Positions 6,890 through 58,522 of a stretch of DNA of 64,000 bases are shown here, piece by piece. Both the position numbers and the translations under genes were made by a program. Numbering within the stretch: position 1 is the first letter of the stretch; every line of letters starts with the position of its first letter. The notes beneath the pieces are model-generated. The model was not told where the DNA came from, did not search any database, and was given only the letters and a program-made list of their open reading frames with translations. The stretch spans positions 5,270,001 through 5,334,000 of the forward strand of contig CM114271.1 in the NCBI GenBank assembly GCA_050084515.1. Direction: 5' to 3'. Origin of the DNA: Blasia pusilla (lineage: Eukaryota).

Positions 6890-6915
6890 TGCGATCCCCC
6901 GTCGGCCCTGCTGGT

Positions 6916-19567: not shown

Positions 19568-19646
<79 letters not shown>

Positions 19647-19900
19647 GAATTAATTTTGTATCGAGGTCACCTCCGAATTAGATGCCATGTCACGAATTCG
19701 GCTCGATCCTCCACCCGAACCTCTCTTTCTCTCTCTCCATAGAATTAGTTCTGTATCGAGATCACCTCTGAATTGGATGTCAGGTCGCGAATTTGGCTCG
19801 ATCCTCCACCCGAACCTCTCTCTCTCTCTCTCTCTCTCCGTAGAATTAATTATGTATCCAGGTCACCTCCAAATTGGATGCTAGGTCGCAAATTCGGCCT
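19232..19900. repeat. Tandem repeat of ~75-90 bp with a variable (CT)n tract in each unit
   Basis: About 6-7 copies of CTCGATCCTCCACCCGAACC(TC)nCGTAGAATTAATTCTGTATCGAGGTCACCTCCGAATTGGATG. Confidence 0.9.
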
Positions 19901-21002: not shown

Positions 21003-21059
21003 AGTAAATAAAATTTTTGTTTTGTTTTGAATTCAATGTGTCTCAAGAGTGATCTCTCC

Positions 21060-23512
21060 ATGGCTACTTCAAATCCATATATGTCTCGAGTTGTGTGTGG
21101 TGTTGCTTTGGGGGAGAACACATATTGGAGATACTTGCATGATGGCACCAAGTGGATTTGCTTGGTTTGTAACCGCATATTCTCTACCAAAAACAAGACA
21201 AAGTGTAACCAACACTTGATTAAAAAGCATCCAAGCCTCGAACAATGCTACTTAGTTCCATTGGAACATGCGGGTAGGCCTCCTATTGACCCTAGAAAGG
21301 GCCGTAAGAGGCAGATTAGTGATTCCCAAAGAGAGAAAGAGAAGTTGAAGAAATCTGGTGATGCAACTAAGCGAGAGGAAAAAATGAGAAGGGAGAAATT
21401 ATATCGATTGCGCTAATTTCATTCAGAAAGATGGTTAGCAATTAAGGACCGTCCTAAGATCCCTCATTTGGGAAAGAAGCCACCCTTGTTAGCTTTGATG
21501 GAGTGTAATCTCCAACATTGCTTTGACATTGATAATTGGGACGAGCTCTTAAATAGCAAGAAGTATGGGCATTGTCTTGTGAAAGTTCGTGAGTGTCAAA
21601 CAAGAAATGGCATGATGGAGATGGTTGTGTTGGGATGCTTGGCTGTCATTGAGAAAGCAAGTGAGCCAATGTCTACAGATTTGATTGGGAGGGGCAAGCA
21701 ATACTTTCTGCACTTTCACTTGGTGAAAAACTATGGGGGGTGGTGGAGAAAAAAGGGGGTGTGCACTTGGATTTGCTTCCTTCTGAATATTCTAATGAGA
21801 GAGATCAGCAAGTGAGGGAGACAATTGCTTGGATAGCGAGGAAGAAGCAAAACTTGATGGGATGGATGGAGAGAGATCAAGAAAAATACTCAGATTTCAT
21901 GGCAAAGCAACAATATCAGGAATGGTTGGAGAGGAGGAATCTAGAGAAAGTGAAGGAGGTTTGTGAGGAAAGGGCATGTAGGTATGTGCCCAAAGAGAAG
22001 ATAGATGTAGACCTTCAATGGTCTAGGAAGAGTGGCAATCAATCGGGAGTTGGAGGTAGCTCCAATAACTCCTCTACCTCGTCCACTTCAACTTCAGATA
22101 ACTCTGAACACATTAGTGACTTTGAAGTTTTGCGCCCACAGAGGTCTTCTAGGGTGGTCCTTGATTGTGTTACACTGAGGAGTCCCATTGTGCTTGAGGA
22201 GGTGGGAGAGGACCATGATGTCCATACTGATGTTGAGGAGCCGAGACGAAGAGTGACGCGGACCAGATCCATGGGAGAAACCATTGCATCCGAGGAGACG
22301 TTACCCCGAGTCTTCAAAAGGCTCAAGAAGAGAGTAAGGCATGAGGTTAGTAGAAACTCCCCCAAAATGCCTACAAAGATCCCTACTTCATTGGAGGTAG
22401 ATGAAGATCATGTAGGAGACCCATCAGTGGCACCTACCGTTTGCGTCATGGAAGGCATTCCATCAACTATAAGCATAGATCCTCACATTGATGTGTGTGG
22501 GGTTACAATAGAGAGTGCTTATACCTCACCACAAAGGGAAAATCCAGATTTGAGTTCTTTCAATAATAGTTCATGTCATGGAGATAGAGATTTTGTTGGC
22601 GGAAGTCCTATCTCATACACACGGGTTATTCAAACTCCTGTCTCAACCATCTCCATACAAGGTGGTTTGGATCCCATTCATGTAGGAAATTTGGATGTTG
22701 GGACCATCCCTATGGCAGTGGAGGTTTCCTCTGAAGGTACACCATCTGAAGAACTCCCATGCATTCCACCCACTAATGAACCTGTTGGAGATGACTGTCA
22801 AAATTTGGAAGGCATTCCAACAAATGGATCCCCAATAGGCAGCTTGAAAGAGGATAGTGCAAAGCTCTTGGATCACTTGGGAGAGACAACTTATGTTGCT
22901 GAACTTGGTGACATAGATGTTGGTACATCTGAGTCTTTACATTTTGTGGATTCATTGTGTGAAATTGTGGATAGTGTAAACCATCACATCACAAAGATTC
23001 CTCTTGAGCATGGTTTTATTACACCAGTGAATACACATTCGGATTCTCTTAAGAATTCAAGTATAATAGGTGAGGATTGTGATCCTTATATTGATGGTGT
23101 GAGAGAGGGACCTTCTTCTCGTTACCTTCTTGCTTTGAAAAAGAACCTGTTGAAAGTTGCATCCCCATATGGAGTGAGGAAGAGAAATGTCTCAGTGCAC
23201 GAAGAAGTGGATGATTCTACAAGAGGGGGGCTTTCAACTCAAGTGGAGGATATAGATCCCATATCTGACACCCAGATATTAAGGGATGTAAATGAGGTTA
23301 ATGATGAATGGGCCATACCTCCATCCGTAACCCAAGTAGCGGATGCAGTAGAATACGAGAAGATGGAGGATGAGCTACCAAGTGCATCCCAACTCCATGT
23401 TACTCAGGTCATGGCCGAGACAAACACAAAACTTCTTGTGGATGAAAGTTTGAAAAGGTCTAAGAGCATCCAACGACATACTGGATTCTCTCCCCACCAT
23501 GGAGGAGTGTAG
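21060..23512 (+). pseudogene. Transposon-associated ORF with an N-terminal C2H2-like zinc finger and a long acidic/Ser-rich region (one stop, one frameshift)
   Basis: WICLVCNRIF..CNQHLIKKH. ORFs 21027-21416 and 21468-21815 are in the same frame; a frameshift at the G-run near 21735 leads into the 590-aa ORF. Confidence 0.55.
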
Positions 23513-32713: not shown

Positions 32714-33214
32714 ATCTATTGGTACATATGACACAACATGACAATCATGGCATGAGTATTTACTCTATAGATGAAAAAGAATACACTAAAAAATAAATTT
32801 ATGATAAACACAATTTATGCTTATGAAGAATCAGCCAAAAAAACTGCTTCCACAAACTTTGAATTTACTTCCATCAAGCCCATTTCAAACAAATTTTGAG
32901 CTCAAAGGCTAGGTTTGAAATCAAGTATACAACCAAGAATCATTTTGGTGACCAATCCTTTATATTTTGCCACCTTCTCTCCTCCTTCTCAACTTTCTTC
33001 ATATATGCTGCTAACCGTTCTTCACATTGAAGGTTTTCAACATAAGCCATCCATTCTGCCCTATCTTTCTCCTCTTGTTCAGGGATAACACATTTGATGT
33101 AGAACTTATCCCTTTCCTCTGCACGTTTTTTTAATTTTGCTTCCTCTTGTGAAATTTTTTCCAACTCTAATTCTTCCTCTAATTTAGCTTTCCTAACTTT
33201 CACCCTTCGTCCTG

Positions 33215-36200
33215 ACAGACGTCTCCACCCGCATTCTCCAAGATTGGCATGATTTTCAATGATTCAGTGGCGTCCGGCTAGTTCATAACATTGGGAGGCA
33301 TTCTGGCATCGCTTTGCAAAAGAGAACTTGCGCCAATATGATCTAAAACGGTTGACGTACTCAAGTGGGGACTAGCATGAAGGGCAAGACAATGGCGTTC
33401 GCTCAGTTGGCGGTCAAGGGCGTTCTGGAAATGGAGTTCATTTATTTGATAAGCACGAAAAGCATTCTGGCATCCCTCCGCAAGAGAGAAATTGCAAAAT
33501 CACTCATAGATATTGATTCAGCCTCTACCATTGATCATCCTAAACTCCCACATGTTGAAATTTATATTATGTATATACGGTTGTCATATTTCTTGACAGA
33601 CGTCTCCACCCGGATTCTCCAAGATTGGCATGATGTTCAATGAATCAGTGGCGTCCAGCCAATTCATTATATCGGAAGGCATTCTGGACATCCTCAAAGG
33701 GGGGCCAACATGAACGTCCTCAAAGGGGGACTAGCATGAAGACCAAGACAATGGCGTTCGTTGAGTTGGCGGTCAAGAGCCTTTTGGAAATGGTGTTTGC
33801 TTATTTGATAAGAACGAAAAGCATTCTGGCATCGCTCCGCAACAGAGAAATTGCGAAATCACGCGTAGGTATTGATTCAACCTCTACCATTGATCATCCT
33901 CAACTCCTACATATTGAAATGTATATTCTATACATACGATTGTCATATTTCTTGAAAGACGTCTCCATCCGAATTCTCCAAGATTGGCATGATGTTCAAT
34001 GAATCAGTGGCGTCCGGCCAGTTCATTACATCGGAAGGCATTCTGCCATCGCTCCGCAAACAAGAAATCGCGTCAATACGATCTACAACGGTGGATATCC
34101 TCAAGGGGGGACCAGCATGAAGAGCAAGACAATGGCGTTCGCTCAGTTGGCCGTCAAGCACGTTCTGGCAATGGCATTCGCTTATTTGATAATAACGAAA
34201 AGCATTTTGGCATCACTCCACAAGAGAGAAATGGTGAAATCACGCGTAGGTATTGATTCAGCCTCTACCATTGATCATCCTAAACTCCTACATATTGAAA
34301 TGTATATTCTATACATATGGTTATCATATTTCTTGAAAGACGTCTCCACCCGCATTCTCTAAGATTGGCATGATGTTCAATGAATCAGTGGCGTCCGGCC
34401 AATTCATTATATCAGAAGGCATTCTAGACATTCTCAAAGGGGGACCAGCATGAACGTCCTCAAAGGGAGACCAACACGAAGAGCAAGACAATGGTGTTTG
34501 CTCAGTTGGCGGTCAAGCGCGTTCTGGCAATGGCGTTCGCTTATTTTGATACGAACGAAAAGCATTATGGCATCCCTTCGCAAGAGAGAAATGGTGAAAT
34601 CCCGCGTAGGTATTGATTCAGCCTCTACCATTGATCATCCTAAACTCCTACATATTGAAATGTATATTCTATACATACGATTGTCATATTTCTTGAAAGA
34701 CGTCTCCACCCGCATTCTCCAAGATTGGCATGATGTTCAATGAATTAGTGGCGTCCGGCTAGTTCATTACATCGGAAGGCATTATGTTATCGCTCCGCAA
34801 ACGAGAATCGCGCCAATACGATCTACAACGGTGGACATCCTCAAGGGGGGACCAGCATGAAGAGCAAGACAATGGCGTTCGCTCAAATGGCGGTCAAGCG
34901 CGTTCTGGCAATGGCGTTCGTTTATTTGATAAGAACGAAAAGCATTCTGGCATCGCTCAGTAACAGAGAAATTGCGAAATCACGCATAAGTATTGTTTCA
35001 GCCTCTACCATTGATCATCCTCAACTCCTACATATTGAAATGTATATTCTATACATACGGTTGTCATATTTCTTGAGAGACGTCTTCACCCGGATTCTCC
35101 AAGATTGCCATGATGTTCAATGAATCAATGGCGTCCGGCCAGTTCATTACATCAGAAGGCATTCTGCCATCGCTCCGCAAACGAGAAATCGCGCCAATAC
35201 AATCTACAATGGTGGACATCCTCAAGGGGGGACCAGCATGAAGAGCAAAACAATGGGGTCGCAATAAGACCACAAAGGCAAGCATATACATTTGCCACAA
35301 ATAGTGAAGTCACAAAATGCTTTGGAGGACACATTGATGATATAGATAGCTCTTGATTCAGAATCTATAGTTGAGGCCCCTACCATTGAATCATCGTTCA
35401 TCTTAAACTCCTACATATTGAAATTTATATTCTAGATATATACCTTCCATATTTCTTCACAGATATCTCTACCCGGATTCTCAAAAATTAGCATGCTATT
35501 CAATGAATCAACGGCGTTTGCTCAGTTGATAAGATCGAAAAGTATTTTGGCATCGCTCCACAACAGAGAAATTGGGAAATCATGCATAGGCATTAATTCA
35601 GCCTCTACCATTGATCATACTCAACTCCTACATATTGGAATGTATATTCTATATATACAGTTGTCATATTTCTTGAAAGACGTCTCCACCCGGATTCTCG
35701 AAGATTGGCATGATGTTCAATGAATCAGTGGCGTCCGGCCAGTTAATTACATCGGAAGGCATTTCGCATCGCTCATAACGAAAAATTGCCGCCAATACGA
35801 TCTACAATGGTGGACGTCCTCAAGGGGGAACCAACATGAAGAGCAAGACAATGGGGTCGCAATAAGTCCATAAAAGCAAGCATATACATTTGCCACAAAT
35901 AGTGAAGTCACGAAATGCTTTGGAGGACAGATTGATGATACAGATAGCTCTTGATTCAGGATCTATCGTTGAGGCCTCTACCATTGAATCATCAATCATC
36001 TTAAACTCCTACATATTGAAATATTTATTCTAGATAAATAACTTTCACATTTCTTGACATACATCTCTACCCGGATTCTCAAAGATTACCATGTTGTTCA
36101 ATGAATCAATGGCGTTCGCTCAGTTGATTAGATCGAAAAGCATTTTGGCATCGCTCCGCAAGAGAGAAATTGCGCCTGCACAAATACGTTCCACAATAGT

Positions 36201-36235
36201 GGATGGCCTCAAGGGGTAAGCAGCATGAAGAGCAA
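33215..36235. repeat. Satellite array with ~360/381-bp monomers and higher-order structure
   Basis: GTCTCCACCC(G/C)GATTCTC anchor at 33221, 33602, 33961, 34342, 34702, 35082, 35465, 35682 and 36063. Confidence 0.95.
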
Positions 36236-39200
36236 TTCCGTCCTTAGTAATGATTGTGGACAGACTTGCTGCTACAACGTCAGCCCTGCACTTGGGTAAC
36301 AACCGATCTCACCAAGTCTTGCCTCGTTTGCCCCACATTGATGCGCTAGACATTCTTGCATGTGTCTATATTTGCAACATACATTATAGTCCATCATGCT
36401 TGTGGCTCACCTTGAAAATTTGCACTTCCCAGACACCTGAGCAACAGTGATGCCTACTCAAGTACTGTGTCATGTTTGGCTCTGTTTCTTTTCAGTACTA
36501 GTTGATCGCATCAGGTCTATTTTGCAAAGAGGTGAGTTAAGGCTATGGAATTTTTTCCTGACCACCAGCTTGTATTTCTTGTGATGTTCGATCAAGACCA
36601 ATCACTTTATCGAGCTTTTCCCACATGACCAGTAGTAGTTTGGACGAGGCTATTCTTATGCTGTGACTACTGTTATTTGTGGAAAAACCTATGCTCGTGC
36701 TGTTATTGACGGTGGGTACAGAGTAGGTCTATCCAAGGATTCAGTGCTGTAACAATGCAATCTTTGTCTAGTTGTGCAGAGGCATGCGTCGTAGCTATGG
36801 TGTTGGCGGTTCACCCGTAAGCCCTGTCATGTTTTGATTCGACAACTTGCACTAGAATAGGGTACCGATGCACATCAAAAGCTGTGGTCGCGATTATGTA
36901 CATGGGGATTTGAGCAACTGCCCGCATACAGGTCAGCAGAACTCGGGAGCCCACGAATAGTTTTGATGTTAGTAGAAAGCCATGTAGGTAAGCTGTTGGG
37001 AGTTGCAATGCAGACCGTTCATGTATTAGCAAGAATGGAATAGGTTTCTACATTGGGAGGGATCTTCGGTCAAGCACAAATCCCCTGTTTGATAATTCAT
37101 GGATTTGAATATGGAGCATATTAGTTCAGATCTTCTCCACTCTAGCTTGACTATCCAGTAGAATAGCCGCTTTATGCGTAACTTAACTTTAGCTCATGAT
37201 GTTACAGTTATGGTAAAGACTTGTCTCATCAGCAAACTTTGAGGAGTGTGCACTTCGTGTGTAAGTTATTGGGGGTTGCAATGCAGACCGTTCTTGTATT
37301 AGCAAGGACATAACAAGTTTCTATATTGGGAGGGGTCTTTGCTCAAGCACTGAGGCGCCTGTTTGACAACTTCATGGGTTTGAATCTGTAAAACATTAGT
37401 CAGCTATTGTTTCTAGATAATAGAGTGATGTGAAGCGTAGGTTTTTGGGTGCTGTAGGCACTATAGAGCTACATGACTTAATTGCAGAGTTTAGGAGTTG
37501 GTGTGACTCATAGCGGGCTAGGAACTCGAGAGAGTTCAACCCGTTTACAATATGGAACGGTATGTTCCAGCATTTAGAGGGGGCGCCCATGGACGATTGC
37601 CATGAGTTCTCCCACAAATATGCCCAAGAGATTGAGGCATGGCGACTCTACTATGACCCACACTATGTGTCATGGACGGAGCCGTTCCCAGATGAGGAGG
37701 AGGAGTCGGGAGAGGCTACTTCCTCTTCCACTAGTGATGTTTTAGAAGGGGTCAATCGCACTGGAGCAGTTGCACCATCTAGTCGGGTTCGTCCCACGTT
37801 CAACCCCGTGGTTGAGTTCTTTGCTGAGTTGAGGGCGAGCTACCAAGGGGTACGGACGGAGAAGTTGTAGAGCATCCACAACTTCCAAAGGCGCCAAGGT
37901 GAGAGTTTGCGTGAGGCTTACACTCGCTTGCGCCGATTGATCAACGCCACTCAGGGACTGATGGAGGCTCAGGATATCCAATCATGGTACACGATGCTAA
38001 ACCGGACCCTACGGATACGGGTGAGGGAGGGATGCTTCTTATGAATACCTCCCCTATGTTGAGAGATGTTTTTAGGATGACCGAGAAAAATGAGCGCAAC
38101 ATGACGGAGGAGAGCGTAGCCACCATGGGTTCTGGGCGAGAGCAGTCACGATTGTCTGCACTACCAGTGTAGCAACGTGGACTCCGAGATAGGTCGACTG
38201 TGGCACCACGAGCTCAAGGAGGATATTGAGAGGCACTGCCACAGATACCTACGCCTTCATATGCGGCTCAGTAGCAGCCGCCTATGATTACTTGTTGGTC
38301 ATGTGGTGGAGCTCATCATCAGCGTGATTGCACTCGTGAGGGTCATGGACGCGTGCCTCAGTATGGGGGAGGAGATGGTGCTGCATTAGGAGGTTATCAG
38401 TGTGACTATTATCATAGGTATGGTCACACACGCGCCAAGTGTTTCAGTTTACACCATGAGTTACGTCCGGACTGAGGGCCAGAGAGGGCACCAGAGCGAG
38501 TAGCCGGTCTGGGTGGGCTATAGATCGTGCACCTGGTGGTCCCATTGGAGGAAGAGGAGTTGGAGTTACCCGACAGGATGGTGGAGCTGCCCGTGGAGGA
38601 GGTAGATTCCCACCACCTGGACGCGTAAAGGGAGATGCCAAGCGTGAGGCTGGGATGGGATGGCCGCTTTGATACAATAGCTACAAGAGCAGATTGCCGT
38701 TATGGCATTGAGGCTATCCAATGCCGGATCCGTGGCATCGACATCATATGGATCAGCCAGAGATATGGAGGATCCTGGTTGGATATGTGGGATTGCCCAG
38801 ATGGAGGCCGCCGTAGTTGTGGCACGTGGAGCAGCCGTAGAGTTGGATCCACAGCGAGGGGAAGCCAGGAAATAGACCAGGCTTCCTCAGTCTTTCACGT
38901 TGTCCAAGGTGATGAGGATTCCATCGTTGGGTCATGATTAGAGTTCCTAGAGAGTTGGTGATGTTATTGGTGTGCAAGCATAGAGGGTAATGGGAGAAAC
39001 GAGTGTGACAACTCCTATTGTTGATGCTCAGTAGGAGCATGTATCGAGTACGATGTTGGGGGCGGCCATAATGGTCTACCGTGCTCCGCTATTTTCTACT
39101 TCCGATGTTTTGACATTGGGAGGTACTCCTGCCAAGGTATTCCACCTAGCCATTACGCAATGTGAGTGTGGAGTTGGAGTTCTTGCATCATATTCAAAGG

Positions 39201-40128
39201 TGATTGCAGAGGAGGTGATGGACCTGCCTTTGAGCTGATGCTCGGGCCGTCCACGCTAGATTCATGGCAGGCTCCAATTGCTCAGATGGTGGAGATGCCC
39301 GCGATAGAGCGTGCCATGGCTTCTCCTGATGTTGTGTTGCTGGATAATTGGGGAGAGGTCTTCCAGTTGGTGAGTCCTAGAGGTCAAGATTTTAGTCCGC
39401 AACGCGTCTTGTTGGATTCATGAGCGCAACCCTTGATGTTGGGGAAAGCGTCATTCAGAGGATTGGGCTTCACAAGAGCCGATGTGGAGCGTTTTCCATT
39501 CCGGATACAGACATCCTTGGGTGGAGCAAGTACCACACATTATATCACCCGACAAGAGGTCGTGGTGAGGATTCGCCCGGGACATCCTATAGATGAGTCT
39601 GTGGTGGGAGCCAAGGCGATAGTGACTGATGCAGAGTCCTACGACGTCTTGGTTGGTGGAGCAGTGTTATACATGATGGGTTTTTCCCTAGATTATTGGG
39701 AGGAGTCACCATCCTACAGACCAGGATGGCAGTAAGGTGATGGGCGCCTTAGCTCATTACCCGTTCGATTTACAAGTGTAATGATCGAGCGACGGCCACG
39801 AGAGATGGCGACCTTAGCAGCATTTAGCAATGCCATCACTTGGCCTAGCGATTTGATTGAGGGACATGTCCATGCAAAGAATACTCCCGTTCTTGACATT
39901 TCTATGGAGAGGAGTGTCATGTTAGCCGCATCAATCCGTGGAGGAGAGATATCGTTTTGGGGCTCGACTGAGGAGCTTCGACGCTTAGCCACTGAGCATA
40001 TGCATATTGCGTGGAGCGAGATGTTTGCACCAGAGTGTGACGGGTCAGAAGAACCCCAAGTAGGCAAGAATGCTGCTATGACCCCTTTGGACATCATCCC
40101 GATTATGTGGTGCATCCCAGAGGAGGGT

Positions 40129-41070
40129 ATTTGGGTCTTGGATCTCTTTGGATGGATCAACATTGGGTTAGCTGCTGTTTTGCAGGCTGGAGTACGCGTG
40201 CAACAGTATTTGTATGTGGAGATTGATGATGTTGCTAGGCGCGATTCACTTCACCATATGGCGCAATTAGGCCTCTATTTTCCCGACTTGTTATCTGCAT
40301 TCGTCATTCACGGTTACCAGAGTTTCCTACTGAGGGACATTTCATTGTTGGGGGCGCAGGACTTGGAGCGGGTAGGGACCATAGACTTGGTCATTTCTGG
40401 TTGGGCGTGTCAGGGCCAATCGAGTGTTGGAGGAGGTAGCGGGTTAGCTGACGCTCGGTCCTCGTTGTTTTGGGAGATGATGCGGATCTTGCGACATTTA
40501 CAAGAGCATCAGCTTCGTTCTCTAGCATACATTTTGGAGAATATGCCAATTTTGGACGATTTGAGGTCCCGCATGGTGACGAGAACACATCACGTGCATG
40601 CATGGATTGGCTTGGCAGTGTTGTTAGATGCGGCAAGTGTGGGTTCTAGAGCACACCGACCGCGTCTTTGGTGGACCAACTTGGTACCGCATGAGGTGTT
40701 GCGGAGATCTTATGTGAGAGTGGAGTGTCCCTCCAATTTGTTGGTGGATTCTATATTGGATCAGAGCCGTCGATAACAGGCAATGAGGCACGATGATGGA
40801 CCGTCGTTGACTCTCATCATTAGGATTGGCATGCCACGAGCAACCTTTCCCACATTGGTGAGTTTTCTCGCTTCCTATGCATTCAAGGAGAATGGAATTG
40901 GCTTGGTTTGGGATGACCATATAAAGAGGTTGGTGGAGCCCAACGCCAATGAGCGAGAGAGAGCGATGGAATTCCCCACAAGAGTGATGGCAGTATCATA
41001 ACTATTTGATGCATCACAACATCATGTCTTGGGTCAGGCGATGGACCTGAACTGCTTGGCATGGATTTTC
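40129..41070 (+). pseudogene. DNMT3-like C5 cytosine DNA methyltransferase domain inside the Gypsy polyprotein
   Basis: Motifs in canonical order: I VLDLFGWI, II YVEID, IV IDLVISGWACQG (catalytic Cys), V GLADARSSLFWE, VI YILENM, VIII AHRPRLWWTNL, IX ERERAMEFP, X LGQAMD. Same frame as the protease, with point stops only. Confidence 0.88.
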
Positions 41071-44000
41071 AGCTTAGGAGTATCTGAGCAATATCGTTTG
41101 AGGATGCGACATATCACAAAAGTTGCGTTGGTGAGCCCTTGCCTACCAAGACGGTTGAGGCAATGGCTGGGGGCAAGACCCGAGGAGATCGATACACTAG
41201 GGGTGATCGGAAGAGACACCCTTGGACTTCTTGGGATATTTTGTACGTACGCCAGGAGATGGTAGCCACAACATCGAGCGTGGTTCCGGGTACAGCAAAT
41301 GGGGATCCGATTTTGCATTTGGTTGTAGGAGAGCAGTCGAGTTTTGTTTTCCGAGACGGGGTTGCACCATAGCAACCACCCATACCCATGCCGGAGAGTC
41401 CTATTGTAGTCACGATGGAGACTTGGGAGTCATATATGGGCCCTAAGTTGACAGGAGGAGAGCGGCGCCGGATCACGAGTTCCTTAGAAGTTATAGGAGC
41501 TGTTTTGCATTTAGTATGCAGGATTTGGGTACGTTGAAGGGTCCAGGGATCCGCATTGAGATGTCGAGTGACACGCCGATCTTCCGACGATCCTACAAGT
41601 ACAGTGACATAGAGAGGGCTCTAATTCAGAAGCCAGGACTTGGTTGGCACATGATTAGTGGTATGTCGCATGGAGAGTATGCATCTGCGACTATCATGCC
41701 CACCAAGAAGCATGTGCATGGCAACCGGACGGATATGCATATGTGTGGAGATTACCGACCTTTCAATCGGCAGACAAAGTCCGATAGGTATGCCATGCCC
41801 ACTCCTGAGGAGATCTTTGATTCTATTGGGTATGTAAAGGTCTTCAGTTTGTTAGATCTTTGAGTTGGATACCATCAGCTGTCTATCAGATTGGAGGACA
41901 AGGAGAAGACGGCATTTTGGGGCATCAATTCTCACGGGAAGAATTGCTTGTATCAGTGGCGGTTCTTTCCAATTGGGTTAAAGAACGCCTCGGCTGAGTT
42001 TTAGAGGGTCATGGATAGATCTTGGAAGGTCTAGGTGTTATATTGATGACATTGTAGTCTTTAGTGCCACGGTTGAGGAGCATGACCGACATCTAGAGGA
42101 GATATTTCGATGATTGCAATTACATGGGCTGAAACTATATCGAGGCAAGTGCAAGTTCTTCTACAACCAGATTGAGTACCTAGGTCATACGATATACCCA
42201 AGGGGCCTTGGTGTGCGGTAGACGAAGATAGAGGCTATTTCACGCATTCCACACCCTACAGATGTGAGTCAAGATCGTGTATTCAGGGGATTGGTGAACT
42301 TCTATCGACGGTACGTCAAGGGTTTTAGCTCGATTGCAAAGCCCCTGATCTTGCTGACCAAGGTGGATCAAGAGTGGCACTGGGGGGATGAGTAGAAGGG
42401 GCATTGGGGGGATGAGCACGAGAGAGCATTTAAGATGCTCAAGGACAGAGTGATGTTCGTGCCCATATTGAGGAGAGTGATCAGGGGGCGTCCTTTCCAG
42501 TTGCATACCGATTGGAGCATATTAAGGCTTGGAGCCGTGCTCACCCAACATGATGATGATGGTAGAGAGTTTGTAGTGGCTTATGGTAGTTGCTTGAATA
42601 ATATTGCAGAGGAAAAGTATAGCTCGTATGAGGGTGAGTGATTGGCTGTAGTGTGGGTTTTCACACTTTTCAGATGTTATCTATTCGGCAATCCCTCTAC
42701 CATTATTACTGATCATCAGCCACTTAAGTGGTTGATGGAGTCTGACAAGTTTACAGGGAAGCTTGCGAGATGGGCTCTTTTGTTGCAGGAGTATGACTTC
42801 TAGGTGGAGCATGGACATGGGATGCTAAACCACGATGCATATGGTTTGAGCCGTAACCTATGCCCGAGTCAGCGAGATGCGACTGGAGCTTGTTGGCATG
42901 GTGAGAGTGATGAGGAGTTGGTGCCATGATGGCTTGCGTCAGCCTATTTGGGCTTGTTGGCTATGGAGAGCCAGATTGTTGAGACTTCGATGGCGAGGTG
43001 TGATGGAGAGTCCTTAGATCTAGAGGCTGGTGAGGAGATGATTGGTGGCCGAGATATTCACAACAATGGAGTGGTCTTGGAGTACCTGCGTACTGGCAGC
43101 GTTGCAAGCATAGTGGGTGCTAGAGAGCAGGATCGGATCCTACATCGAGCCAGACGGTCTCGGTGGGAGGGCAAACATGTGTTGCAAGTGTGGGAGGATG
43201 GTAGAGTGCGTGTAGTGCCTCATCCTTGGTAGAGAGCATATTTGGTGCGTCATGCCCATGAGGAGTTGGGTCATTTTGGAGTGAATCGGACGTACAACTT
43301 ACTCCAAATTTAATATTTGTGGCGAGGCATGCAGAGTGATGTTCGGTAGTTTGTTGTCAGATGCATGGTGTGTGATTGAGTGTGAGCATCGTTCAATGCT
43401 CTGACTCCATAGTTGCATCCACTTCCAATCATGGGTTTAGGTTATAGATGGAGTTTGGATTTTGCAAGACCTTTCCCTTTGACGGAGTGCCATAGTCGTT
43501 ATGTGTTGGTGATGGTCGAGCACTTCTCAAAGTGGATAGAGTTGGTTGCATTGTCTAACAAAGTGAGTGAAGGAGTAGCATATGCCTTCCTAGATGGAGT
43601 GTTGAGTCATTAAGATGCACCAGCTGAGGTGTTGACAGACCATGGTATAGAGTTCCGCGGGGAGTTTCAGGCCTTGTGTGATCAGGCACTGATCAACCAT
43701 CGCACTACCTCGCGAGATCATCCTGAGGCGGATGGACTAGCCGAGCGGGTTATGCAGACGTGAAGAGAGGACTACGCAAATATGGCTTGTGGAGAGGTCA
43801 CCCAAGAGATTGGGACATTCAGTTGTTGTGGTTGGCGATGGGATACAGATTTAGGAAGCAGGCATCCTTAGCGTCTTTCTCACCGTATTTGTTGCTTTAT
43901 GGCCGAGAGCCAAATTTACCTACGACCATTTGTCGAGATGTTGGTGAGGTGTTGAACCTTGATAACCCTGATGTATGGATGCGAGCATCCTCTCAGAGGG

Positions 44001-44353
44001 CTGAGTTGTTTCGGAGAGTGATGCTCATGGCGTTTGAGAACTTGGCGATTGCGCAACATCGAGATACGTTGAGGTATGCAACTATTCGGGGAGGTGGTTA
44101 TCGACCTACAATCCGGAGGTTTCATCAAGGAGACTATGTCTACTTATAGCAGATGGCACCCACGACGTTGGATATGACTGCATGGTGCACCATCTTGAGA
44201 GTGCGTGAGGTTTTGCCATCCGGTGTTCTCTTATTGGAGGGATGCGATGGTATGGTTTGGAAGGACCATGTGCGTAACTATGCTCCATGTCATCTTCCGA
44301 ACATTGACAATACAGTTGATTAGAGTTTAGCAATAGTTCTTACAGGCTTACGA

Positions 44354-44494
44354 TGTATGTTGTGTGGTTCCGCCCGTGGTGCAGCCATAATGCTAGTGTG
44401 TGATGGGTGTTCGAGAGGATGGCATATTGCATGTTTGACGCCACCTCTCACTAGGATTTCTTAGGGACGATGGATGTGTCCCAAATGTACGTAG
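44354..44494 (+). pseudogene. PHD finger (C4HC3) at the integrase C-terminus
   Basis: CMLCGSARGAAIMLVCDGCSRGWHIACLTPPLTRIS*GRWMCPKCT*, in frame with integrase ORF 43760-44149. Confidence 0.9.
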
Positions 44495-46863
44495 CGTAGG
44501 TAGTTCTACATTATGACTTGAGGCTAGTACATGGATGATAAGAAGGCGACTAACGATAGGGCCACATGTTCTTAGTGTTTGAGAGATGTATGTCATGGTA
44601 GGTAGGGATAGATGGCTATCTAGAGTTAGAGGGACCTAACCCCCAACTAGGGGGGCGATTGGAGAGATTTTGGTACTTTTGTCTCGTTGTTTGGATGCCA
44701 TGAGTTAGCATGGGATCGTGCATGTTTGTGTGTGTGTCTGGTGACAACAATATATGTTATGTAACGATGTGTATGCGCACGACATATACGCGACTATATG
44801 TAGTTCTTTGCCCACCTATAGGTCGTTGTGCTGAACACAAAGGCATTATCCTTCTCAACAATTCCCGAGGAATGAAAGTCCGTGAAACACCAACATGTTC
44901 ATTTGACTGATTTGTGGTGCAGCTACCCTATTTGGAACTAGGTAGGAACTATCTTGTTGTACTCCCCACTAACTGTTCAGTAAAATACAAATGTCAGCCT
45001 CTCAGTTTCATGGTCGCGGTTTCTTTGGTCACATCTTAACCACTCTAGGCTAACTATCCATCAGAATGGCTGCACATTCATACGCAACTTAACTTTACCT
45101 CATTATTTTACAACTATGATAAGGCCTGTCTAATCAGAAAACTTTGAGAAGCCTACAGTCCGCGTGTTCATATGTACTAAAGCTTCATTATAAATCTCCT
45201 GCCACGAACCAAGCGCATACTATACTTTCCTGCACATTGTTAGACTGCCATTGTGTATTGCATCTGCATGTAGGTTTTTCATACATAGTGACTGGTTCAC
45301 ATAATATCAAATCGGCAGGTTGAGCCTACAACAGAGATTCTATAGTCAGCTATACACTAAACATCTTTGTAAGTATGGGGCTAGACTATATTAACTATTC
45401 TATATCACACTCGGTATTGTTGCTAGGAAATCACTCTACGAGTTTCATGATGCAGACCATACACTTGTATTTACAGTTGGGTGTCATGCCACTGAAGTAA
45501 GGTGCCCACCACCAACATATCTCTCTCCATTGGCATTTTGTATCATTGTGAATCAGCTGTGTCGTGAGCTTCATGGTGTGATGCCCATTCGAGTTACAAT
45601 GCAAAGCAGAGTTTGTTTAGCCGGTATAGAGGGGACTACTATCAATGCGGCAAGCTATGTGCATCGTTGTAGCTTGTCATATTTAGGACACTGAATCAAC
45701 CCACTGTCTGAGGTGGAAATTTGTGCACTACAATCCACTCATATCAGAGGAGAGAAGGTTAATTTAATACCTGATGTTGTAGGTGAGCAACCTTATGTAC
45801 TGTTCACTCAATTGTCTCCATCCGAATATGTATATTGCATAATCTGTGTTTACAGACTCGGCCAACCTATGCTAGATGAACTGAAAGTTTCCCTATGTAC
45901 TTCAGCCTATGGATTTTCTGAGACCAACGGTGTATTACTATGGCTTCTTAAGTTTCTTGCAACACCATCCTTTCAGGTTGCTGTTAAAGACTTCTATTGC
46001 ATATAGCGACGAGCTCCTTCACCTTGTTCACTTATCCTGACCTATTGGATAACAATTCTTGTATTAAGATCCAGACACGGTTGTAGTGTCCGTGGTAGTA
46101 GGCGATTGTCAATTGGTTATGCAAGTTCATTTATTGTGTATGCATCAACTCCTCTAGTTTCTACTGATTATTTGTAGTTGAACACGACATATCCCGATAT
46201 ACTCTCCCAAGTTTAGGTACTTACCTGCCTCCACCAATGTCATGTATTTATGGGATGCGTGCGATTGTATTAATGGCCACTACTTGCCAGTGACTTTAGC
46301 AAACAACTGTAGATCCTTTGCTATTTTAATTGATTATGCTTAGTTCTAGGTAGGTGTTTAACGTGGATTTTTCACAAGCCTTATTGCATTCTAAATTACA
46401 TTTGTAGATTAGCTTCTTCATAGTTATCCATCCAATTCCATGATGAATAGTTGATCCAGGGGCTCGATTACATATATTCAGGTGAACTGTACATCGGCAT
46501 TGTTCACACAACAAACATTGCTCATGTCCATGCATCAACCTCCTAAACTGTTGTGTTTTGCGGCCTACTTCTCTGTCTTGGGTTTTTTTGTATCTAGGGA
46601 AGGAGTATAGACATCATTAGATACAAAATGGCCGCCTTGTTTGCCTTTGTTTAGAATGCTTACCTATGTTACTGCCACCTCATGCATGGACACAGTGCAT
46701 ATATAGTGTTCTTGCTTTCTATACGTGCCAAGAAGTGGCATTTCCATCTATTGTTATGAAGTAAATTTGTGTACATTTTGATTACTTGCTTCCGTTATAC
46801 TGATGTGACTTCCTATTGTGGAACCTTATTGAACCAAGCGCATGAGAGTGCTTCTTGTAATAC

Positions 46864-49800
46864 ATGGTTTCTGCTACCAGACCCCAAAGGGTCCAAAGAC
46901 CCAACTTAGCAAACCAGAATAAGCTTAAGGCATGTAGAGAACATGCAAGGGTGAGGTTGATCCTTCTGAGTAAGATACAGAGAAAGCCTATCAATAGAGT
47001 ATGGCCCAACATCGAAACAATACTCAGACTTTGGCAACAACAATCCTCATCTTTTATAGGCAACATGAAAAGCTGTGGATATTGCGGTGCCGTTAATTAC
47101 GGAACTAGTCAAGTAAGGTTGACTCTTATAGAAACATACACCTATCCGCCTTATGCTCTCTGTAATAGCTACATGTCTAAATATGTGATACCTTCTCATG
47201 GAAAATTTTACGTGTGTTCCCAATGCAAGGGTCGTTCACCTCAGACAAGCCATAACGTTTACATGACTCTACAATACATGCATGACGTGTTGGCAATCAA
47301 ACCTCTGTACCTCTAGCTAATGTCCTTTGTGGATTCTCGCCTAGGCATTGAGACTAAATACAGCGGTTTTCATACAAGATTCTTTCAGGTTGACTCATTA
47401 CTTGATTGCCAACTTTTGGCATGGAATATTGACCAGCCTCTGCTATCCAACTCCAATTTTCTATATAGGCAAGTGAGAAAAGTTCTCCTTGTAAACCTGA
47501 GAGTTAACAATTTGTTTGCACAATACACACCTCTAATTGGGTTGCCCAGTCCTACACTTGGTCTTGTAATCCTGCCATCTTCCAATATGGAAATTATCCT
47601 AAAATCTTCCCAGGAAAAGGGGCAACTAACCCATAGCATGGCAGCAGATCCATCTAGTACAAAGCTTAATGTGGTGCAAGACGTGCAATAATCCCTCCCC
47701 GTGAAGTGTAGAAAATCCTATGATATCTTTCACAATGGTAGTGTTTCTCTTCGTGAGCATGCCCACAGTAGAGTATAACTTCTAAGTGACAAAAACCGGA
47801 TGTCTGCCAATAGCAAACTCACAATTGAGACAAGGATTTTCCCCTTTTTGTTTCCATACTTAAGGGGTACTTTACGGGGCAGTCTTCATTCAGCGACTAC
47901 TTACGCTGCCATACCAAATATCTTTTTAGTGTATGCATATTATACCAACCATATATCCTCATGATGCACCAACTTCGGCAATCTATTGCTTTAGCATCCT
48001 CTAGTCGCTCTTTTAATTTAGCCTAAACAAAGAACTTGACCAACTAAAAGAAAACACCCTGATCTCCCTCATGAAGACCTCTATGCACACTTGTCTAGAT
48101 ATATTGTTGGTGCGCATATACCAGGTAGCCTGTCTTGGAATTTCCGTCACTTAAAGAACCTTAAAGCAATGGTCAAGAAGTGGGGTATGCCATACTTGTT
48201 TGTGACTTTAACTTCTGATGAGGTATCAGATTCTAGGTGATCTGAGATTGATGATATAGAGGCAATCCTTTGCAAGGTCAATTCCTCCCTCACATGGAGG
48301 AACGCTCCTCCTGAGTGTGCAGCACTATTTCATACAAGGCTCAAAACATTCTTTCAAAATTATATCCTGGGACATGTACACAACTACCTGGTCTGTTATG
48401 AGTTCTAAGGTCGGGGGAGCTTGCACTACCACATGATACTATGGGTAAGCGACCAGGATATTAATTGTGTCACTTGAGAGATATGTTGTTATATTCCTTC
48501 CGTTGATAGTCCTGCTACAGAGTTGGCCACCTAGCTTACTCCGCTCCATAGGTTGCATCGGTTTGTTACGACCAAGCAGATACATACATGTTAACAGGAA
48601 GTGTGCACCATTAGGGGGACAAAAGATCATCCACCATACTGTCGTATGGAATTTCATGCAACCCCAAACTTTTGTATAGAGCCTATTTTTTATCAACATA
48701 CTTTGAAGTGGACGTATTATTGGCTTGGCTTGGAACACCGTAACGTCATCTCGTATCACTCTGCAATCCTGGTACTTTGGGGAGCACACATGAACCTACA
48801 ACGGGTGACTAATGTTCAGTGGTCATTTTATTTTTTGAAATACGCATTGAAATCTGAGCCACAAGGATCTTTGAATATAAATACAGTATGCGTAAGGTGC
48901 CTAGGTCTTGAGGACCTTGACAAGATTAGGCTACGTCTTATATCTGGACTTGTATTGAACCGGTAGTTGTTGTGATATTATGGAGGAGTGTATTGTAGAA
49001 AAAATCTTTGGATTTGCATTTGCAAATCCAAAGGATGATCTACCTAACATGCACTGTGCAAGTGACCAGTATGGTCGCCTCATAGATGCTAAGGTTATAG
49101 TTATCGACAATTTTTTCATGCTCACACCTCGGTTGCTCGGAATAATTGGTATGAGGTTGCACTAAGTCTGTCCCTCATCAAATTTGGATCCTTTTTCTAC
49201 AAAGCTTCTTATTCTTTTAGGTGACCTTTGTCAACTACAACCAGTTTGTCGCCATAATGTTGTTTCAATGTGTATGGCATGCCATATATCTTCATATATC
49301 GCCATTTTTCAGCTCACTACACAAGTACGAATTATCTACTGCTATGAGATATACCGTGGACAGCCAACTCCTTACTTTCTTGTCCAAATTCACACTCAAG
49401 CAACCTACATAACGTCATATTACTTCTTGTCTTGGTGACTGATTTGTTGAGGAAGATGTTGGTATAGATTTCATACAAGAAGACACTCAGATAATTTGCT
49501 CCCACCGAGCTGATGTCCAGCTATTTAATATTGTTTCTCTTCAGAGGCTTTATGGCTCTAGGTCAATTCTGCCTATTCATATCCCTACCAATGCACCGCC
49601 CGATTCGCAGTTTCATGATTGGATCTCTAATCCCTCTTTCTACCAACTACAATTTTTGCAATTGGTTGTAAAGTTCTATTGACATCTAACATTGATGTAA
49701 AAAATCAGGCAGCAAATGGTGCCTCAGCGACAATCCTAGATTGCACCTATAAATCGGATGAGCCGAGTTCTATTACATTGATATTGCACTCAAATAGTAT

Positions 49801-54770: not shown

Positions 54771-55714
54771 GGAGGGACGGCCGTATTCGTAGGCGTTGTC
54801 TTCATCGATGAGCCACGAAAGTGGAGCGTTCCTCCCGTTTATGAATACCATTCATCAATTACTGACTGCCTTAGTCCCATTGAAGAGAGAGAGAGAGTCT
54901 CAGACTTCATTGTACAGGCCATGACTGGGGGTTTCCTCTCATTGAAGGAAGAGACGTGAGAGATTCGCGAATCGATAGGAAAGTGAAAACGTTGTCGTTT
55001 GCTCCCATCGAACGCACCCCGCGAGCATGAATTACAATGTGGATGACAACGAATGCATGGATGTTGCAACGAATGACTCATTGGATACAATCACAAAAGT
55101 GGGGGCTTGCTCGCATCAATCGCCGCAGCGTGGCCAAAATTTCACTAACTCATGATTTACTTCAAGAGAGAATAATCGAATTGAGCTATTGTCCACAGGG
55201 ACCCAAAACGGATGGTACTTTAGAGAGAGAGAGAGAGAGGCGATCCGTCTGCTGGAGGATTTGGTGACAGCCACTCCCACGCAGATTCTTCTCAATCTGG
55301 AAAAGGAGAGAACCTGTACAACAGAGAAGTGGAGCTTTATGCAATCTTGCTTCTGCTTGACCGATCGTTGTAAAATCTGTTTCCCACATATTGCCATGTG
55401 CACAATTCTTGAACAAATCGTCGAGTCGGATGAAGATGGCCTATTGCCCTTTCAGGCCGTGCGTGAAGCTTGAAACTATGACCCGTAGAATTCCCGTGCG
55501 GCTTGGGATCCGTGACATAATCTTCGAGGCACTTAAGAAAGTGGCATGCACATGAATTATTTTCTTCCCAAAGCTTGGCAATCGTTCCGTTTCCAGAGAG
55601 GTTCGTTTGGGAAACCTCGTCCTCCTGAGAAGGATTCGGCGAGCTTCATTCGATCGAAGGGTTGTGCTCTTCTTTTCGTGGGGATCTGTGGACTTGTTCC
55701 GTGCTTTTCGATCA

Positions 55715-56900
55715 TTTGAAGGATGCTGCCCTACATTTGGTGATGATCTTTGGAGTCGGCCGAAGACTTCTGCACTACAATTGCCGAAGATCTTCAAAGT
55801 TGGGTGAGGGATACTGTTCCACATTTCGTGAGGATGTATCCAATTAGGTGAGGGATGCTGTCCTACATTTGCTGAGGATGTGTAGGAGTGGGCTAAGCAC
55901 ACTGTCCTATATTTCATGAGGATCTGTGAAATTGGGTGAGGGATACTCTCCTACATTCATGAGGATCTGTGGAATTCGGTGAAGGATACCGTCGTGCATT
56001 TGCTAAAGATGTGTTGAATTAGGTGAGGGATATTTTCCTACATTAATGAGGATCTGTGGAAGAAGGTAAGGGATACCGCCCTACATTCGCTGACGAGGTG
56101 TGGAATTGGGCGAGGGTTACTGCTGTATGTTTGCTGAAGATGCGCGGGATTGGGTGAGGGATGCTGTTCTAGATTTCGTGACAATCTGTGAAAGTGGACG
56201 AGGGATGTTGCCACATTGCGGGATCATCTTTGAAATTGGGTGAAGCGTGCTGTACTGCATTTGCTGATGATGCTTGGAGTTTGGTGAAGAATGCCGCAAT
56301 ACATTTGCTGATGATCTTCAGATTTGGGTGAGGTGCAGAATGCTGCCCAAGTTGTTCTGAGCATCTCTGGGCTTCCGCGAGGAATACTGTTGTACATTTG
56401 CTGAATATGTGTGGAATTAGGTGAGGGGTAATGTCCTACATTTTGTGGGGATCTGTAGAACTAGTTGAGGGATAATGCCCTAGATTTCGTGAGATTCTGT
56501 AGAATTGGTTGAGGGATAGTCCCATACCTTTGCATGAGGATGTGAGTAATTGGGCAGGCTCCCTTCAAAGGATGCAGGTTTAGGGTTTACTTTTTTTGTG
56601 ATGATGTTTGGAATGGGGAGAGGCCTGCAGTCCTGTAATTAGTGAGGATCTTTGGAATTGGGTGAAGAATGCTGTCCTATATTTTATGAGGATCTGTGAA
56701 ATTGGATGAAGCATGCTGCCCTGCATTTGCTGATGATGTTTGGAATTGGATGAAGAATGCTGCCCTCCGCTGCTTGAGGATATGTGAAGCTGTGAGAACA
56801 CCAGCAAAGGTATGGTGCCGTCCTTTTGGAGAAGATCTTTGGAACTTTGTGAAGGATCCAAACCCACATTTGCTGAGGATCTGTGTCCAGAATTTGGTGA
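55715..56900. repeat. Degenerate 44-bp minisatellite (about 25 units) upstream of the F-box/kelch CDS
   Basis: Consensus approx. GGGATGCTGTCCTACATTTGCTGAGGATCTGTGGAATTGGGTGA; anchors at 55722, 55810 and 55854 give a 44-bp period. Confidence 0.9.
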
Positions 56901-57169
56901 GCTTCATTCGATGTAAAGGTGAAGCTGTGGGACAAAAAAGAACGAAAAAAGAAGCCGATGATTTTATATGGTCAGAAAGAAAAGAAGCCTTTTGAAAACG
57001 ATCAGGTCAGTAGAAGGAGGAAGGGGGGGAGGGGGATCAAATTAAGTGGCTTTCATTTGGAGTTGGATGGGCTTCATTCAAAGGGAGGGTGACATTTGAA
57101 CAGGTGAGGATCTAGGACGCAAGGAAAGCTGATGAATTGATATCAGCAGTTCAGTGGAAGGAGGACCAA

Positions 57170-58522
57170 ATGAAGTGGCACTCGTTTGGAGATGGTATGA
57201 GATCGAAGCTCATGAAAATGATCTCCGACATGATAAGTGAGGTGGCGAGCACGAGCAGCAGCAGCAACAGTGCAAGCAGCAGACGAACGCATTTTGAACA
57301 GGGGAGAGGAGGGGAAGATCAGAGCCTCATTCCAGGAATCTCTAACGAGTTAACCATCGATAGAATCCTCACGAAGGTGCCCTGGAAGACTCTCTATGTG
57401 CTCCAGTCCGTCAGCATTGCATGGCGGTCAGCGATTTACCATGGGAAGGTCTACGATGCTCGAGTTCGAACCAACTCCTCTCAAACTCTCGTGGCTCTGA
57501 TCCATAGAGCCCCAGTTCCCAAATCTGCAGAACCGTCTCTCGACAATCTCTACATCAGAACTATGGATCATGACACCAGAACTGCTGCTGTTCCCTGGTG
57601 GTCCCAGTTTGCCATTTCTCTCTTCGACCCCCTGGACAATTCTTGGCAGCAGCTGCCAGCACTACCTCATGTTCGAAGTGGAATTCCCATCAGATGTGGG
57701 TGTGTTTTTCTTCAGGGGAAGTTGTACATATTGGGAGGTGATGAGGACAACAACAACAACAGCAGCAGCAGCAACAACAGGACGAGAAATGAGGTGTTCA
57801 TGTTCGACTTGGTGGCTGGTCCAGGAGAGTGGCAAGCTTGTGCAAGCATGCTGAGCAGGAGGTCAGACTTTCCATGCGGAGTGGTTGATGGTAAAATCCA
57901 TGTTTCAGGTGGATCTGGAGGTCTGGAAGCAGAAGTGTACAATCCAGAGGAAGATTTGTGGCGACCCATTGCAGATCTGTTGCACCAACGGACAAATCAC
58001 ACAATGGTGAGCTTGGATGGGCAGCTGTATGTAGTTGGGGGAGCTGTGAGGTTCGAAACTCAAGACGATGACGGCAGTGTGGACATCTATGTGGATGCAG
58101 AGTGTGCAGAGTTGTATGATCCCTTGAAGAATCAGTGGACGGAAGTGGCAAAGGTGTTGGATGGGGTGGGAGATCACACCATGGTCGTTGTGAATGGAAA
58201 GCTTTACGACTTTCGTCACGAAGCTGTCGATGTCACAGCTTATGATGTTGCTTCGAACTCTTGGTCAATCTCGCAGCACATCTCGTGGGAAGCTCTGGAA
58301 TCCATGGGAGCTTCAAATGGAGCATGCTGTGCCATCACCGCCACCGCCGTTGATGGGGAGCTCTATGCTCTTGTGAGATGGCAATCTAATTTCTACGAGA
58401 AGCTGTCCATTCTAAGGAGTAAGTGTTTTGGTGACCATAGAGTTCCTCTATCTTGGGAAGGGCTTTTGTGCCCCTTCAAGATTGATTTGAACTGGCCCTT
58501 TCTTTGTGCTATTGCACTTTGA
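57170..58522 (+). CDS. F-box/kelch-repeat protein, intronless CDS (start ATG uncertain)
   Basis: F-box LIPGISNELTIDRILTKVPW..VSIAWR; kelch repeats GKLYILGG, GKIHVSGG..EVYNPEEDLW, GQLYVVGG..ELYDPLKNQW. Confidence 0.92.
   Translation: MKWHSFGDGMRSKLMKMISDMISEVASTSSSSNSASSRRTHFEQGRGGEDQSLIPGISNELTIDRILTKVPWKTLYVLQSVSIAWRSAIYHGKVYDARVRTNSSQTLVALIHRAPVPKSAEPSLDNLYIRTMDHDTRTAAVPWWSQFAISLFDPLDNSWQQLPALPHVRSGIPIRCGCVFLQGKLYILGGDEDNNNNSSSSNNRTRNEVFMFDLVAGPGEWQACASMLSRRSDFPCGVVDGKIHVSGGSGGLEAEVYNPEEDLWRPIADLLHQRTNHTMVSLDGQLYVVGGAVRFETQDDDGSVDIYVDAECAELYDPLKNQWTEVAKVLDGVGDHTMVVVNGKLYDFRHEAVDVTAYDVASNSWSISQHISWEALESMGASNGACCAITATAVDGELYALVRWQSNFYEKLSILRSKCFGDHRVPLSWEGLLCPFKIDLNWPFLCAIAL

Follow-up and report, generated by a model that had tools for sequence, protein, structure and literature searches.

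A degenerate Ty3/gypsy retrotransposon of Blasia pusilla with a predicted DNMT3-type methyltransferase domain within Pol

We analyzed a 64,000-nucleotide stretch of DNA from Blasia pusilla (NCBI GenBank assembly GCA_050084515.1, contig CM114271.1, positions 5,270,001 to 5,334,000 of the forward strand; hereafter the window, with position 1 as its first letter) and found that the plus strand between 37.4 and 44.8 kb very probably holds a dead, mutation-riddled copy of a Ty3/gypsy retrotransposon from a liverwort family, with a DNA methyltransferase (DNMT) domain of the DNMT3 type between protease and reverse transcriptase (RT) and a PHD finger ending the integrase. A retrotransposon with a cytosine methyltransferase inverts the usual picture, in that the transposon would write its own silencing-type mark. 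While the kind has been known since 2018, evidence for its gypsy type has come from a single alga in which copies are few and the test of activity was inconclusive; what is new here is the land-plant branch, its high copy number, its transcripts, its relatives in Marchantia and the accompanying PHD finger. Marchantia polymorpha is open to transformation and genome editing and has a mapped methylome, and because annotated relatives of the element occur in this species, the role of the enzyme for the element becomes testable in a tractable plant.

Domain layout and decay of the window copy

Frame 1 of the plus strand opens at 39424 and reads through protease, linker and C5-methyltransferase with TAA stops at 39733, 40774 and 40999, so that the methyltransferase lies in the protease frame, as the initial annotation of this DNA had stated. 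The methyltransferase domain (40096-41103, +) carries motifs I to X and was delimited using Pfam, PDB sequences, AlphaFold and Foldseek. A match to the PF00145 hidden Markov model, which had been proposed at the outset as a check, was obtained on the piece 39736-40773 at 30.1 bits (E 4.4e-7) against a curated cut-off of 22, covering only profile positions 48-119 of 324. Motifs I, IV, VI, VIII, IX and X follow one another in the canonical, non-permuted order (VLDLFGWINIG, SGWACQG, ILENMP, GSRAHRPRLWWTNL, EPNANERERAMEFP and LGQAMD). Presence and order of the motifs were therefore read correctly in the initial annotation, as was the retained catalytic Cys (SGWACQG, with Ala as the preceding residue in this copy), but motifs I and IX are not intact, each being changed at a near-invariant Gly: in the window, W replaces the second Gly of motif I (G in 128 of 134 relatives) and E replaces the Gly of motif IX (G in 133 of 134). 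The catalytic residues are strongly conserved in the same 134 relatives, with the Cys present in 130 (the other 4 have gaps), the Glu of ENV in 134, each motif VIII Arg in 132 and the Asn of WTN in 133.

The suspected DNMT3-like character of the domain was borne out by family profile and by predicted fold, both of which placed DNMT3A and DNMT3B best. When the read-through, with X at its stops, was compared with PDB sequences by phmmer, DNMT3A came first (E 1.7e-5), followed by DNMT3C and DNMT3B, to 1e-4, with DRM2 and bacterial enzymes far below and a second weak stretch spanning motifs IX-X. A profile built from 24 DNMT domains of the family (alignment A1) and scored against all PDB sequences gave a much sharper ranking, namely DNMT3A (3.9e-25), DNMT3C (1.6e-22), DNMT3B (2e-21), tobacco DRM (2e-15), DRM2 (3e-12), M.HhaI (1e-8) and DNMT2 (1e-4), with no chain named DNMT1 among the 57 profile matches listed. 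The alignment to the DNMT3A chain 2qrv_A runs colinearly in three segments over residues 8-289, so that the domain lacks the DRM-type permutation. An AlphaFold2 model of the window domain computed with A1 reached a mean predicted local distance difference test score of 88.7 and a predicted template-modeling (TM) score of 0.90, and the best 48 rows listed by Foldseek were all DNMT3A, DNMT3B or DNMT3C (best E 2e-19, about 19-21% identity), with target-normalized TM scores of 0.80-0.84 for their catalytic-domain chains. Sequence profile and model thus support an assignment to the DNMT3 type rather than to DNMT1, CMT, DNMT2 or bacterial enzymes, a closeness that ranks solved structures only and is not a phylogeny. 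Among cellular enzymes, DNMT3A and DNMT3B are the best match in sequence and fold, and the motif order is that of DNMT3, unlike the permuted order of DRM. In contrast to cellular DNMT3, the window domain shares only the above ~19-21% identity and sits between RT and a protease of the retroviral type, and Pfam found no PWWP, ADD or plant DNMT3 companion domain beside it.

The domain order of the whole element on the plus strand, obtained from tblastn of full-length relatives and from Pfam, is gag, protease, DNMT, RT, RNase H, integrase and PHD finger, that is, the Ty3/gypsy order of protease, RT, RNase H and integrase with gag upstream, with the DNMT sitting between protease and RT. Pfam on single open reading frame (ORF) pieces missed gag, protease and the bulk of RT and integrase, which were assigned through tblastn to relatives. 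The Marchantia proteins P0158 and P0163, the Sphagnum protein P0226, the full-length European Nucleotide Archive (ENA) polyprotein P0218 and the full polyprotein P0010 are all colinear with the window element, and tblastn of the relatives detected no second element copy in the window.

The gag region (37436-38463, +) runs in frame 2 and then in frame 1 with 5 in-frame stops and matches residues 12-354 of P0158 at 50% and 36% identity, with P0226 matching as well; it contains a zinc-knuckle-like CWSCGGAHHQRDC at about 38293-38331, and zf-CCHC was not called by Pfam in the window gag. It is followed by a poorly conserved linker (38660-39217, +, frame 2, 6 in-frame stops) that aligns to residues 398-573 of P0158 at 35% identity. 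Relatives map the block of protease, linker and DNMT to 39247-41136. Within it, the aspartic protease (39247-39735, +, frame 1) was placed by colinear alignment with relatives, of which P0010 and P0011 give Asp_protease matches in Pfam, and the linker between protease and DNMT (39736-40095, +) is conserved relative to the Marchantia copies and has no Pfam match to a known domain. Downstream of the DNMT, P0158 and P0226 reveal a further linker in frame 3 (41139-41486, +), after which the RT (41477-42110, +; frame 2, then frame 3), containing YIDDIVVFS, was identified by tblastn of P0218, P0163 and P0010, with a weak RVT_1 match on 41982-42110 (E 9e-4) that stays under the Pfam cut-off. The initial annotation had the DNMT directly upstream of the RT; the RT does come next, from 41477, yet two frame changes intervene. 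The RNase H domain (42222-42800, +) was found by tblastn and includes a PF17919 (RT_RNaseH_2) match of 62.6 bits on 42396-42641. The integrase (42930-44146, +; frame 3, then frame 2) comprises a zinc-binding part and an rve core at 43413-43760, matches residues 1539-2344 of P0218 at 46-49% identity and P0226 at 75% over 114 residues, and has rve matches of 23.2 bits and of E 0.025, both under the Pfam cut-off. Its C-terminus is formed by the PHD finger (44324-44461, +; PF00628, 33.1 bits, E 5.8e-8), which is also present in the relatives P0218, P0014 and P0168 and whose best PDB sequence matches are the fingers of KAT6A, DPF2/3, KDM5B, KDM5A, AIRE, UHRF1 and PHF21A.

That the window copy is inactive, as had been concluded from its stops alone, is evident from 34 in-frame stops in 2,281 codons, 7 frame changes, the alterations of motifs I and IX and a protease active site that reads D-S-stop (TGA at 39421) instead of D-S-G, with RVLLDS*AQPLMLGK in the window and RVLLDSGAQPLMLGK in relatives. 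Host genomic reads carry another letter at the stops at 37511, 37868 and 38272 in 80-84% of cases, in a check that covers 40 of 1,633 difference rows and ends at 38822, and for 4 of the 7 frame changes a length other than that of the window is seen in 44-64% of the genomic reads. Among 975 places at which at least 25% of the reads differ, 515 have A/T in the window and G/C in the family, 162 show the reverse and 298 are transversions. This excess of A/T in the window is the pattern expected of C-to-T decay. It is a better indicator than the CpG observed/expected ratio of the element (0.68, against 0.49-0.50 in the flanks and 0.58 in the whole window), which alone is no proof of methylation-driven decay.

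Relatives, copy number and transcripts of the family

The DNMT is an integral, family-wide domain of Pol. Scanning the 614-residue read-through against 1.84 billion representative proteins yielded 1,687 matches at E <= 0.001 and 142 at E <= 1e-30, many of them polyproteins of 1,000-3,400 residues. Nine Marchantia polymorpha proteins match residues 105-613 of the read-through in a word-index search (E 1e-135 to 7e-103, 45-51% identity, 87-92% coverage), and these, together with the 142 proteins at E <= 1e-30, exclude chance. In BLASTP, window residues 1-571, comprising protease, linker and DNMT, align unbroken to Marchantia proteins at 45-52% identity. Further proteins came from a profile search, three of them from Marchantia and one each from Sphagnum fallax and Tetraselmis, and exact look-ups gave Calypogeia fissa (3 in all, being fragments of the architecture), four further Marchantia proteins, Closterium sp. 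NIES-68 and NIES-54, and Scenedesmus sp. PABB004. M. polymorpha thereby contributes sixteen relatives, of which twelve span about 960-1,330 residues and four are shorter fragments, and public annotation lists them as hypothetical proteins. A caution for annotation follows, as bryophyte matches to "DNA (cytosine-5)-methyltransferase" can be transposon genes.

Two architectures were found among the relatives. In Pfam, with six matches examined, P0010 has the order CCHC-protease-DNMT-RT-RNase H-integrase and P0014 the order RT-RNase H-DNMT-integrase-PHD; Marchantia P0163 has the DNMT followed by RT and RNase H. Upon local domain mapping of the 76 matches of roughly 950 residues or more, 16 showed the window order (the DNMT preceded by protease, followed by RT and RNase H, or both), ten of them extending no further than protease-DNMT, and 54 showed the second order (the DNMT behind RT/RNase H, immediately ahead of the integrase, or both), 26 of them as complete RT-RNase H-DNMT-integrase-PHD; three more have the DNMT alone and three are ambiguous or incomplete. 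DNMT, integrase and PHD finger follow one another in 39 of the 76, namely the 26 complete ones, 8 with DNMT-integrase-PHD and 5 with RNase H-DNMT-integrase-PHD, so that the finger is found in the majority of relatives with the second order. The order protease-DNMT-RT-RNase H-integrase occurs in liverworts, Sphagnum and Closterium, and RT-RNase H-DNMT-integrase-PHD in Scenedesmus and many metagenome sequences. A FastTree tree of 135 DNMT domains, which is unrooted, made with a quick method and restricted to retroelement-type domains without cellular DNMTs, contains one split that parts the two architectures with a Shimodaira-Hasegawa-like support of 99 (40 rows without the second type against 95 rows without the first), and places the window in an 11-row clade with support 100, whose other members are eight rows from Marchantia, the one from Sphagnum and an ENA sequence. 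The family thus has a DNMT3-related domain within the gypsy Pol ORF across its copies, which is the hallmark of the KnitGypsy-Dnmt3 kind, and the earlier view of an integral Pol domain stands, given that the order protease-DNMT-RT recurs in Marchantia, Sphagnum, Closterium and environmental polyproteins and that the DNMT has a read depth close to that of gag.

Read depth in the host revealed a high-copy family of which the window copy is a single member. We counted reads at a likeness of at least 80% over 36200-48200 in one host genomic run (X14, ~1% of the run) and in three RNA-seq runs. The sequencing-run index behind this choice pointed to one species label and listed no RNA holder; its Logan contigs gave small shares only, two air-metagenome runs among them, on which we base no conclusion. 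The summed genomic depth averaged 1.5 in eleven flank bins and amounted to 1,742-1,773 in three DNMT bins, ~1,140 times the flank depth; it was 1,614-2,068 in the five bins from gag to the start of the protease (37403-39407) and 2,572-3,355 on the integrase, where reads from related families or from truncated copies may add to the depth. From the ratio of DNMT bins to flanks, the DNMT stretch is present in roughly a thousand copy-equivalents at this likeness, about as many as gag, a depth ratio and not a count of loci. Only 155 of 144,048 genomic reads are at least 99% like the window copy, which fits a window locus that is present once in the host genome; 114,408 others are under 90% alike.

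Relatives of the window copy are transcribed, whereas the window copy itself is not detectably so. In the three RNA-seq runs, depth was 30-51 on the two bins wholly within the DNMT (40210-41011) and up to ~200 on the integrase, and zero on the flank bins except two (0.27 and 0.28), and none of the 5,858, 6,003 and 6,091 RNA reads of the three runs was at least 99% like the window copy. About 90% or more of the RNA reads have their first mate on the minus strand, so that, given the usual stranded libraries, the family transcripts are apparently sense RNA. Within RT and RNase H, RNA reads but not DNA reads join over 1,078 nt at 41536-42615 (11-24 reads per run) and over 155 nt at 42632-42788, where the ends are GT..AG (2-7 reads per run); such joins may come from family transcripts that have been spliced or that carry deletions.

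Known systems and a possible role in self-methylation

The nearest known system is KnitGypsy-Dnmt3 of Klebsormidium nitens, described as having intronless Dnmt3-related domains in the gypsy Pol ORF, Ka/Ks below 0.2, few copies and a DIRS-like repeat arrangement (PMC5890265). As far as that description goes, both are streptophyte long terminal repeat (LTR) Gypsy elements with an intronless DNMT3 domain in the Pol ORF, no DRM-type rearrangement and key residues kept. Compared by description only, they differ in that the host here is a liverwort and not a charophyte alga, with a depth ratio of ~1,000 instead of few copies; that a PHD finger follows the integrase here, the words PHD and chromodomain being absent from the main text of PMC5890265; and that the repeats of KnitGypsy-Dnmt3 are DIRS-like, whereas the window copy has no definable terminal repeats. 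SymbioDIRS-Dnmt3 of Symbiodinium, as presented in the same paper, shares with the window family a DNMT3-type domain in Pol and two coexisting domain orders, but is a DIRS element of a dinoflagellate host, with a tyrosine recombinase instead of an integrase and with CG methylation shown in yeast (PMC5890265). With chromoviruses, going by the account in a 2026 preprint, the family shares a reader of histone tails fused to the C-terminus of the integrase as a plausible targeting module, a chromodomain there and a putative PHD-finger reader here (10.64898/2026.05.21.726589). The EpiLTRs of Euglena and Collodictyon in the same account are likewise LTR elements with a DNA methyltransferase and a chromatin reader, yet their DNMT is reported as sister to DNMT4, they have an adenine methyltransferase and a chromodomain, and the preprint separates them from streptophyte Gypsy-DNMT3, citing "streptophytes (Gypsy-DNMT3)" as previously described (10.64898/2026.05.21.726589). 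The passages on this type in PMC5890265 and in the preprint name no land plant, and we found no description of gypsy-DNMT3 in land plants in the literature, including by Marchantia gene identifiers, though the supplementary DNMT trees of PMC5890265 and PMC12344493 may include bryophytes.

For intact copies of the family we tentatively propose a self-methylating element, a proposal that we would expect to fail somewhat more often than to hold. The protease would free the DNMT, alone or still attached to RT, and the freed DNMT would act as an active de novo methyltransferase on the element's own double-stranded cDNA or fresh insertion. The PHD finger of the integrase would meanwhile read the unmodified H3 tail and so choose the chromatin; several of the PHD fingers that match that of the window read the unmodified H3 tail, as does the ADD domain of DNMT3. 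The element would then bear its mark on arrival in the genome, and could thereby blend in with the methylation of the host or keep its own damage in check. Extended to bryophytes including Marchantia, this would mean that they have hosted, since before the split of Zygnematophyceae and land plants, a transcribed and possibly mobile gypsy family with a working DNMT3 writer and a PHD reader that methylates itself and chooses its chromatin, which we consider rather unlikely in its entirety; if it were true, the approximately thousand copies could add measurably to the de novo methylation of the host. The idea of self-methylation itself comes from de Mendoza et al. 2018 (PMC5890265).

Several observations weigh against this picture, in its structural or in its functional part. 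No LTR pair of the window copy was found by exact-seed repeats, blastn self-comparison or local alignment, no convincing primer-binding site was seen by eye at the element ends, and no target-site duplication could be defined. A direct repeat of 137 nt (37126-37262, +) that is 76% identical to 45029-45167 lies just outside the high-copy part, with a flank-like genomic read depth of ~0-1, and may be an LTR remnant of the window copy or an unrelated flanking repeat. The last family-shared stretch (44660-44784, +), of which blastn self-comparison gave a 78%-identical copy at 8304-8432, is possibly the start of the 3' LTR; high genomic depth continues to the bin 44621-45021, and 1,940 reads run off at 44784. 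The copy number comes from ~1% of one run, the read check of the stops ends upstream of those in protease and DNMT (39733, 40774 and 40999), and the window copy itself cannot act. Of 134 relatives, 64 have Pro immediately before the catalytic Cys but 59 have Glu there, so that half of the retroelement family differs here from cellular DNMT3 and DRM; such an "ECQ" in place of PCQ or PCN is unusual among C5 methyltransferases and makes the chemistry uncertain for half of the family. The gypsy DNMT3 of K. nitens gave no methylation in yeast, a result that its authors call inconclusive (PMC5890265), and the activity of a gypsy-borne DNMT3 is a prediction for any element of the gypsy type.

The domain might instead be a one-off capture, with one gypsy copy having gained a host DNMT3 gene or pseudogene by insertion or transduction, as the single, broken copy in the window could suggest. 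This is refuted by the colinearity of protease, linker and DNMT with nine Marchantia proteins and by a genomic depth of the DNMT that exceeds the flanks ~1,140-fold and is close to that of gag; relatives in Sphagnum, Calypogeia and Closterium, and a domain that is ~19-21% identical to solved DNMT3 chains and not near-identical to a host gene, point the same way, and we regard a capture of this sort as practically out of the question. It is decidedly on the unlikely side, but more serious, that the domain was kept without methylating the element's own DNA, and that it serves as an integration tether together with the PHD finger, methylates host DNA near or away from the insertion, or has an RNA target. 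Such roles would agree with the yeast result for K. nitens (PMC5890265), with the Glu that half of the relatives carry for Pro, and with the PHD finger that accompanies the DNMT in both architectures (DNMT-integrase-PHD in 39 of 76), which suggests chromatin reading. A pure tether is disfavored, because it would not need the residues of catalysis and cofactor binding, which are near-invariant in the 134 relatives (Cys 130, ENV Glu 134, second Gly of motif I 128), and the SymbioDIRS-Dnmt3 domains, although of a different element class, are reported to methylate CG de novo in yeast (PMC5890265).

As to the origin of the family, the initial annotation had pictured a lineage that persists from streptophyte algae into a land plant, whereas the bryophyte elements could also stand apart from the KnitGypsy-Dnmt3 lineage, with a DNMT acquired separately or horizontally and not persisting from a streptophyte ancestor. 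Since the DNMTs of the two architectures are divided by a supported split (40 against 95 rows, support 99), domain shuffling or repeated capture has happened. No named K. nitens protein was among the matches, which is no sign of absence given that the word-index searches reach only sharers of 5-residue words, and the closest relative of the window is P0156, an ENA sequence without a named source. Conversely, the order protease-DNMT-RT unites liverworts, a moss and two Closterium strains on a side of the tree without the other architecture, which fits one streptophyte origin. We hold a separate acquisition to be rather improbable.

Host genes and other features of the window

The land-plant host that had been suggested by an NPR-like gene was confirmed by two features of the window. 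A single-exon Kelch/F-box ORF (57116-58519) shares 77% identity with Marchantia polymorpha Mp_1g17330 across 94% of its length, its next match being a Marchantia paralogue at 31%, and an NPR1_like_C exon was identified by Pfam at 63062-63451 (-). Going by the sequence of this one host gene and by the relatives of the transposon, the host is most likely a liverwort that is related to Marchantia and is not M. polymorpha. An intronless gene for ribosomal protein S16 (uS9) lies at 6455-6976 (-; Ribosomal_S9, 131 bits) and has a CpG observed/expected ratio of 1.09, compared with 0.58 over the window as a whole.

Directly upstream of the element, 33210-36089 is occupied by a satellite-like tandem array with a period of about 360-380 nt and ~5 or more copies at 84-90% match. 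At 21012-23509 (+), a BED zinc-finger ORF (PF02892, 20.7 bits, barely above the cut-off) is followed by a 615-residue open frame without a Pfam match, which may together represent either a host gene or what is left of a hAT-like transposon. Tandem repeats of 44 nt (~17 copies, 66% match) were found just upstream of the Kelch/F-box gene at 55692-56815, and repeats of 93-95 nt with (CT)n tracts at 19232-19931. A tRNA-Leu gene with a TAG anticodon is located at 1248-1327 (-).

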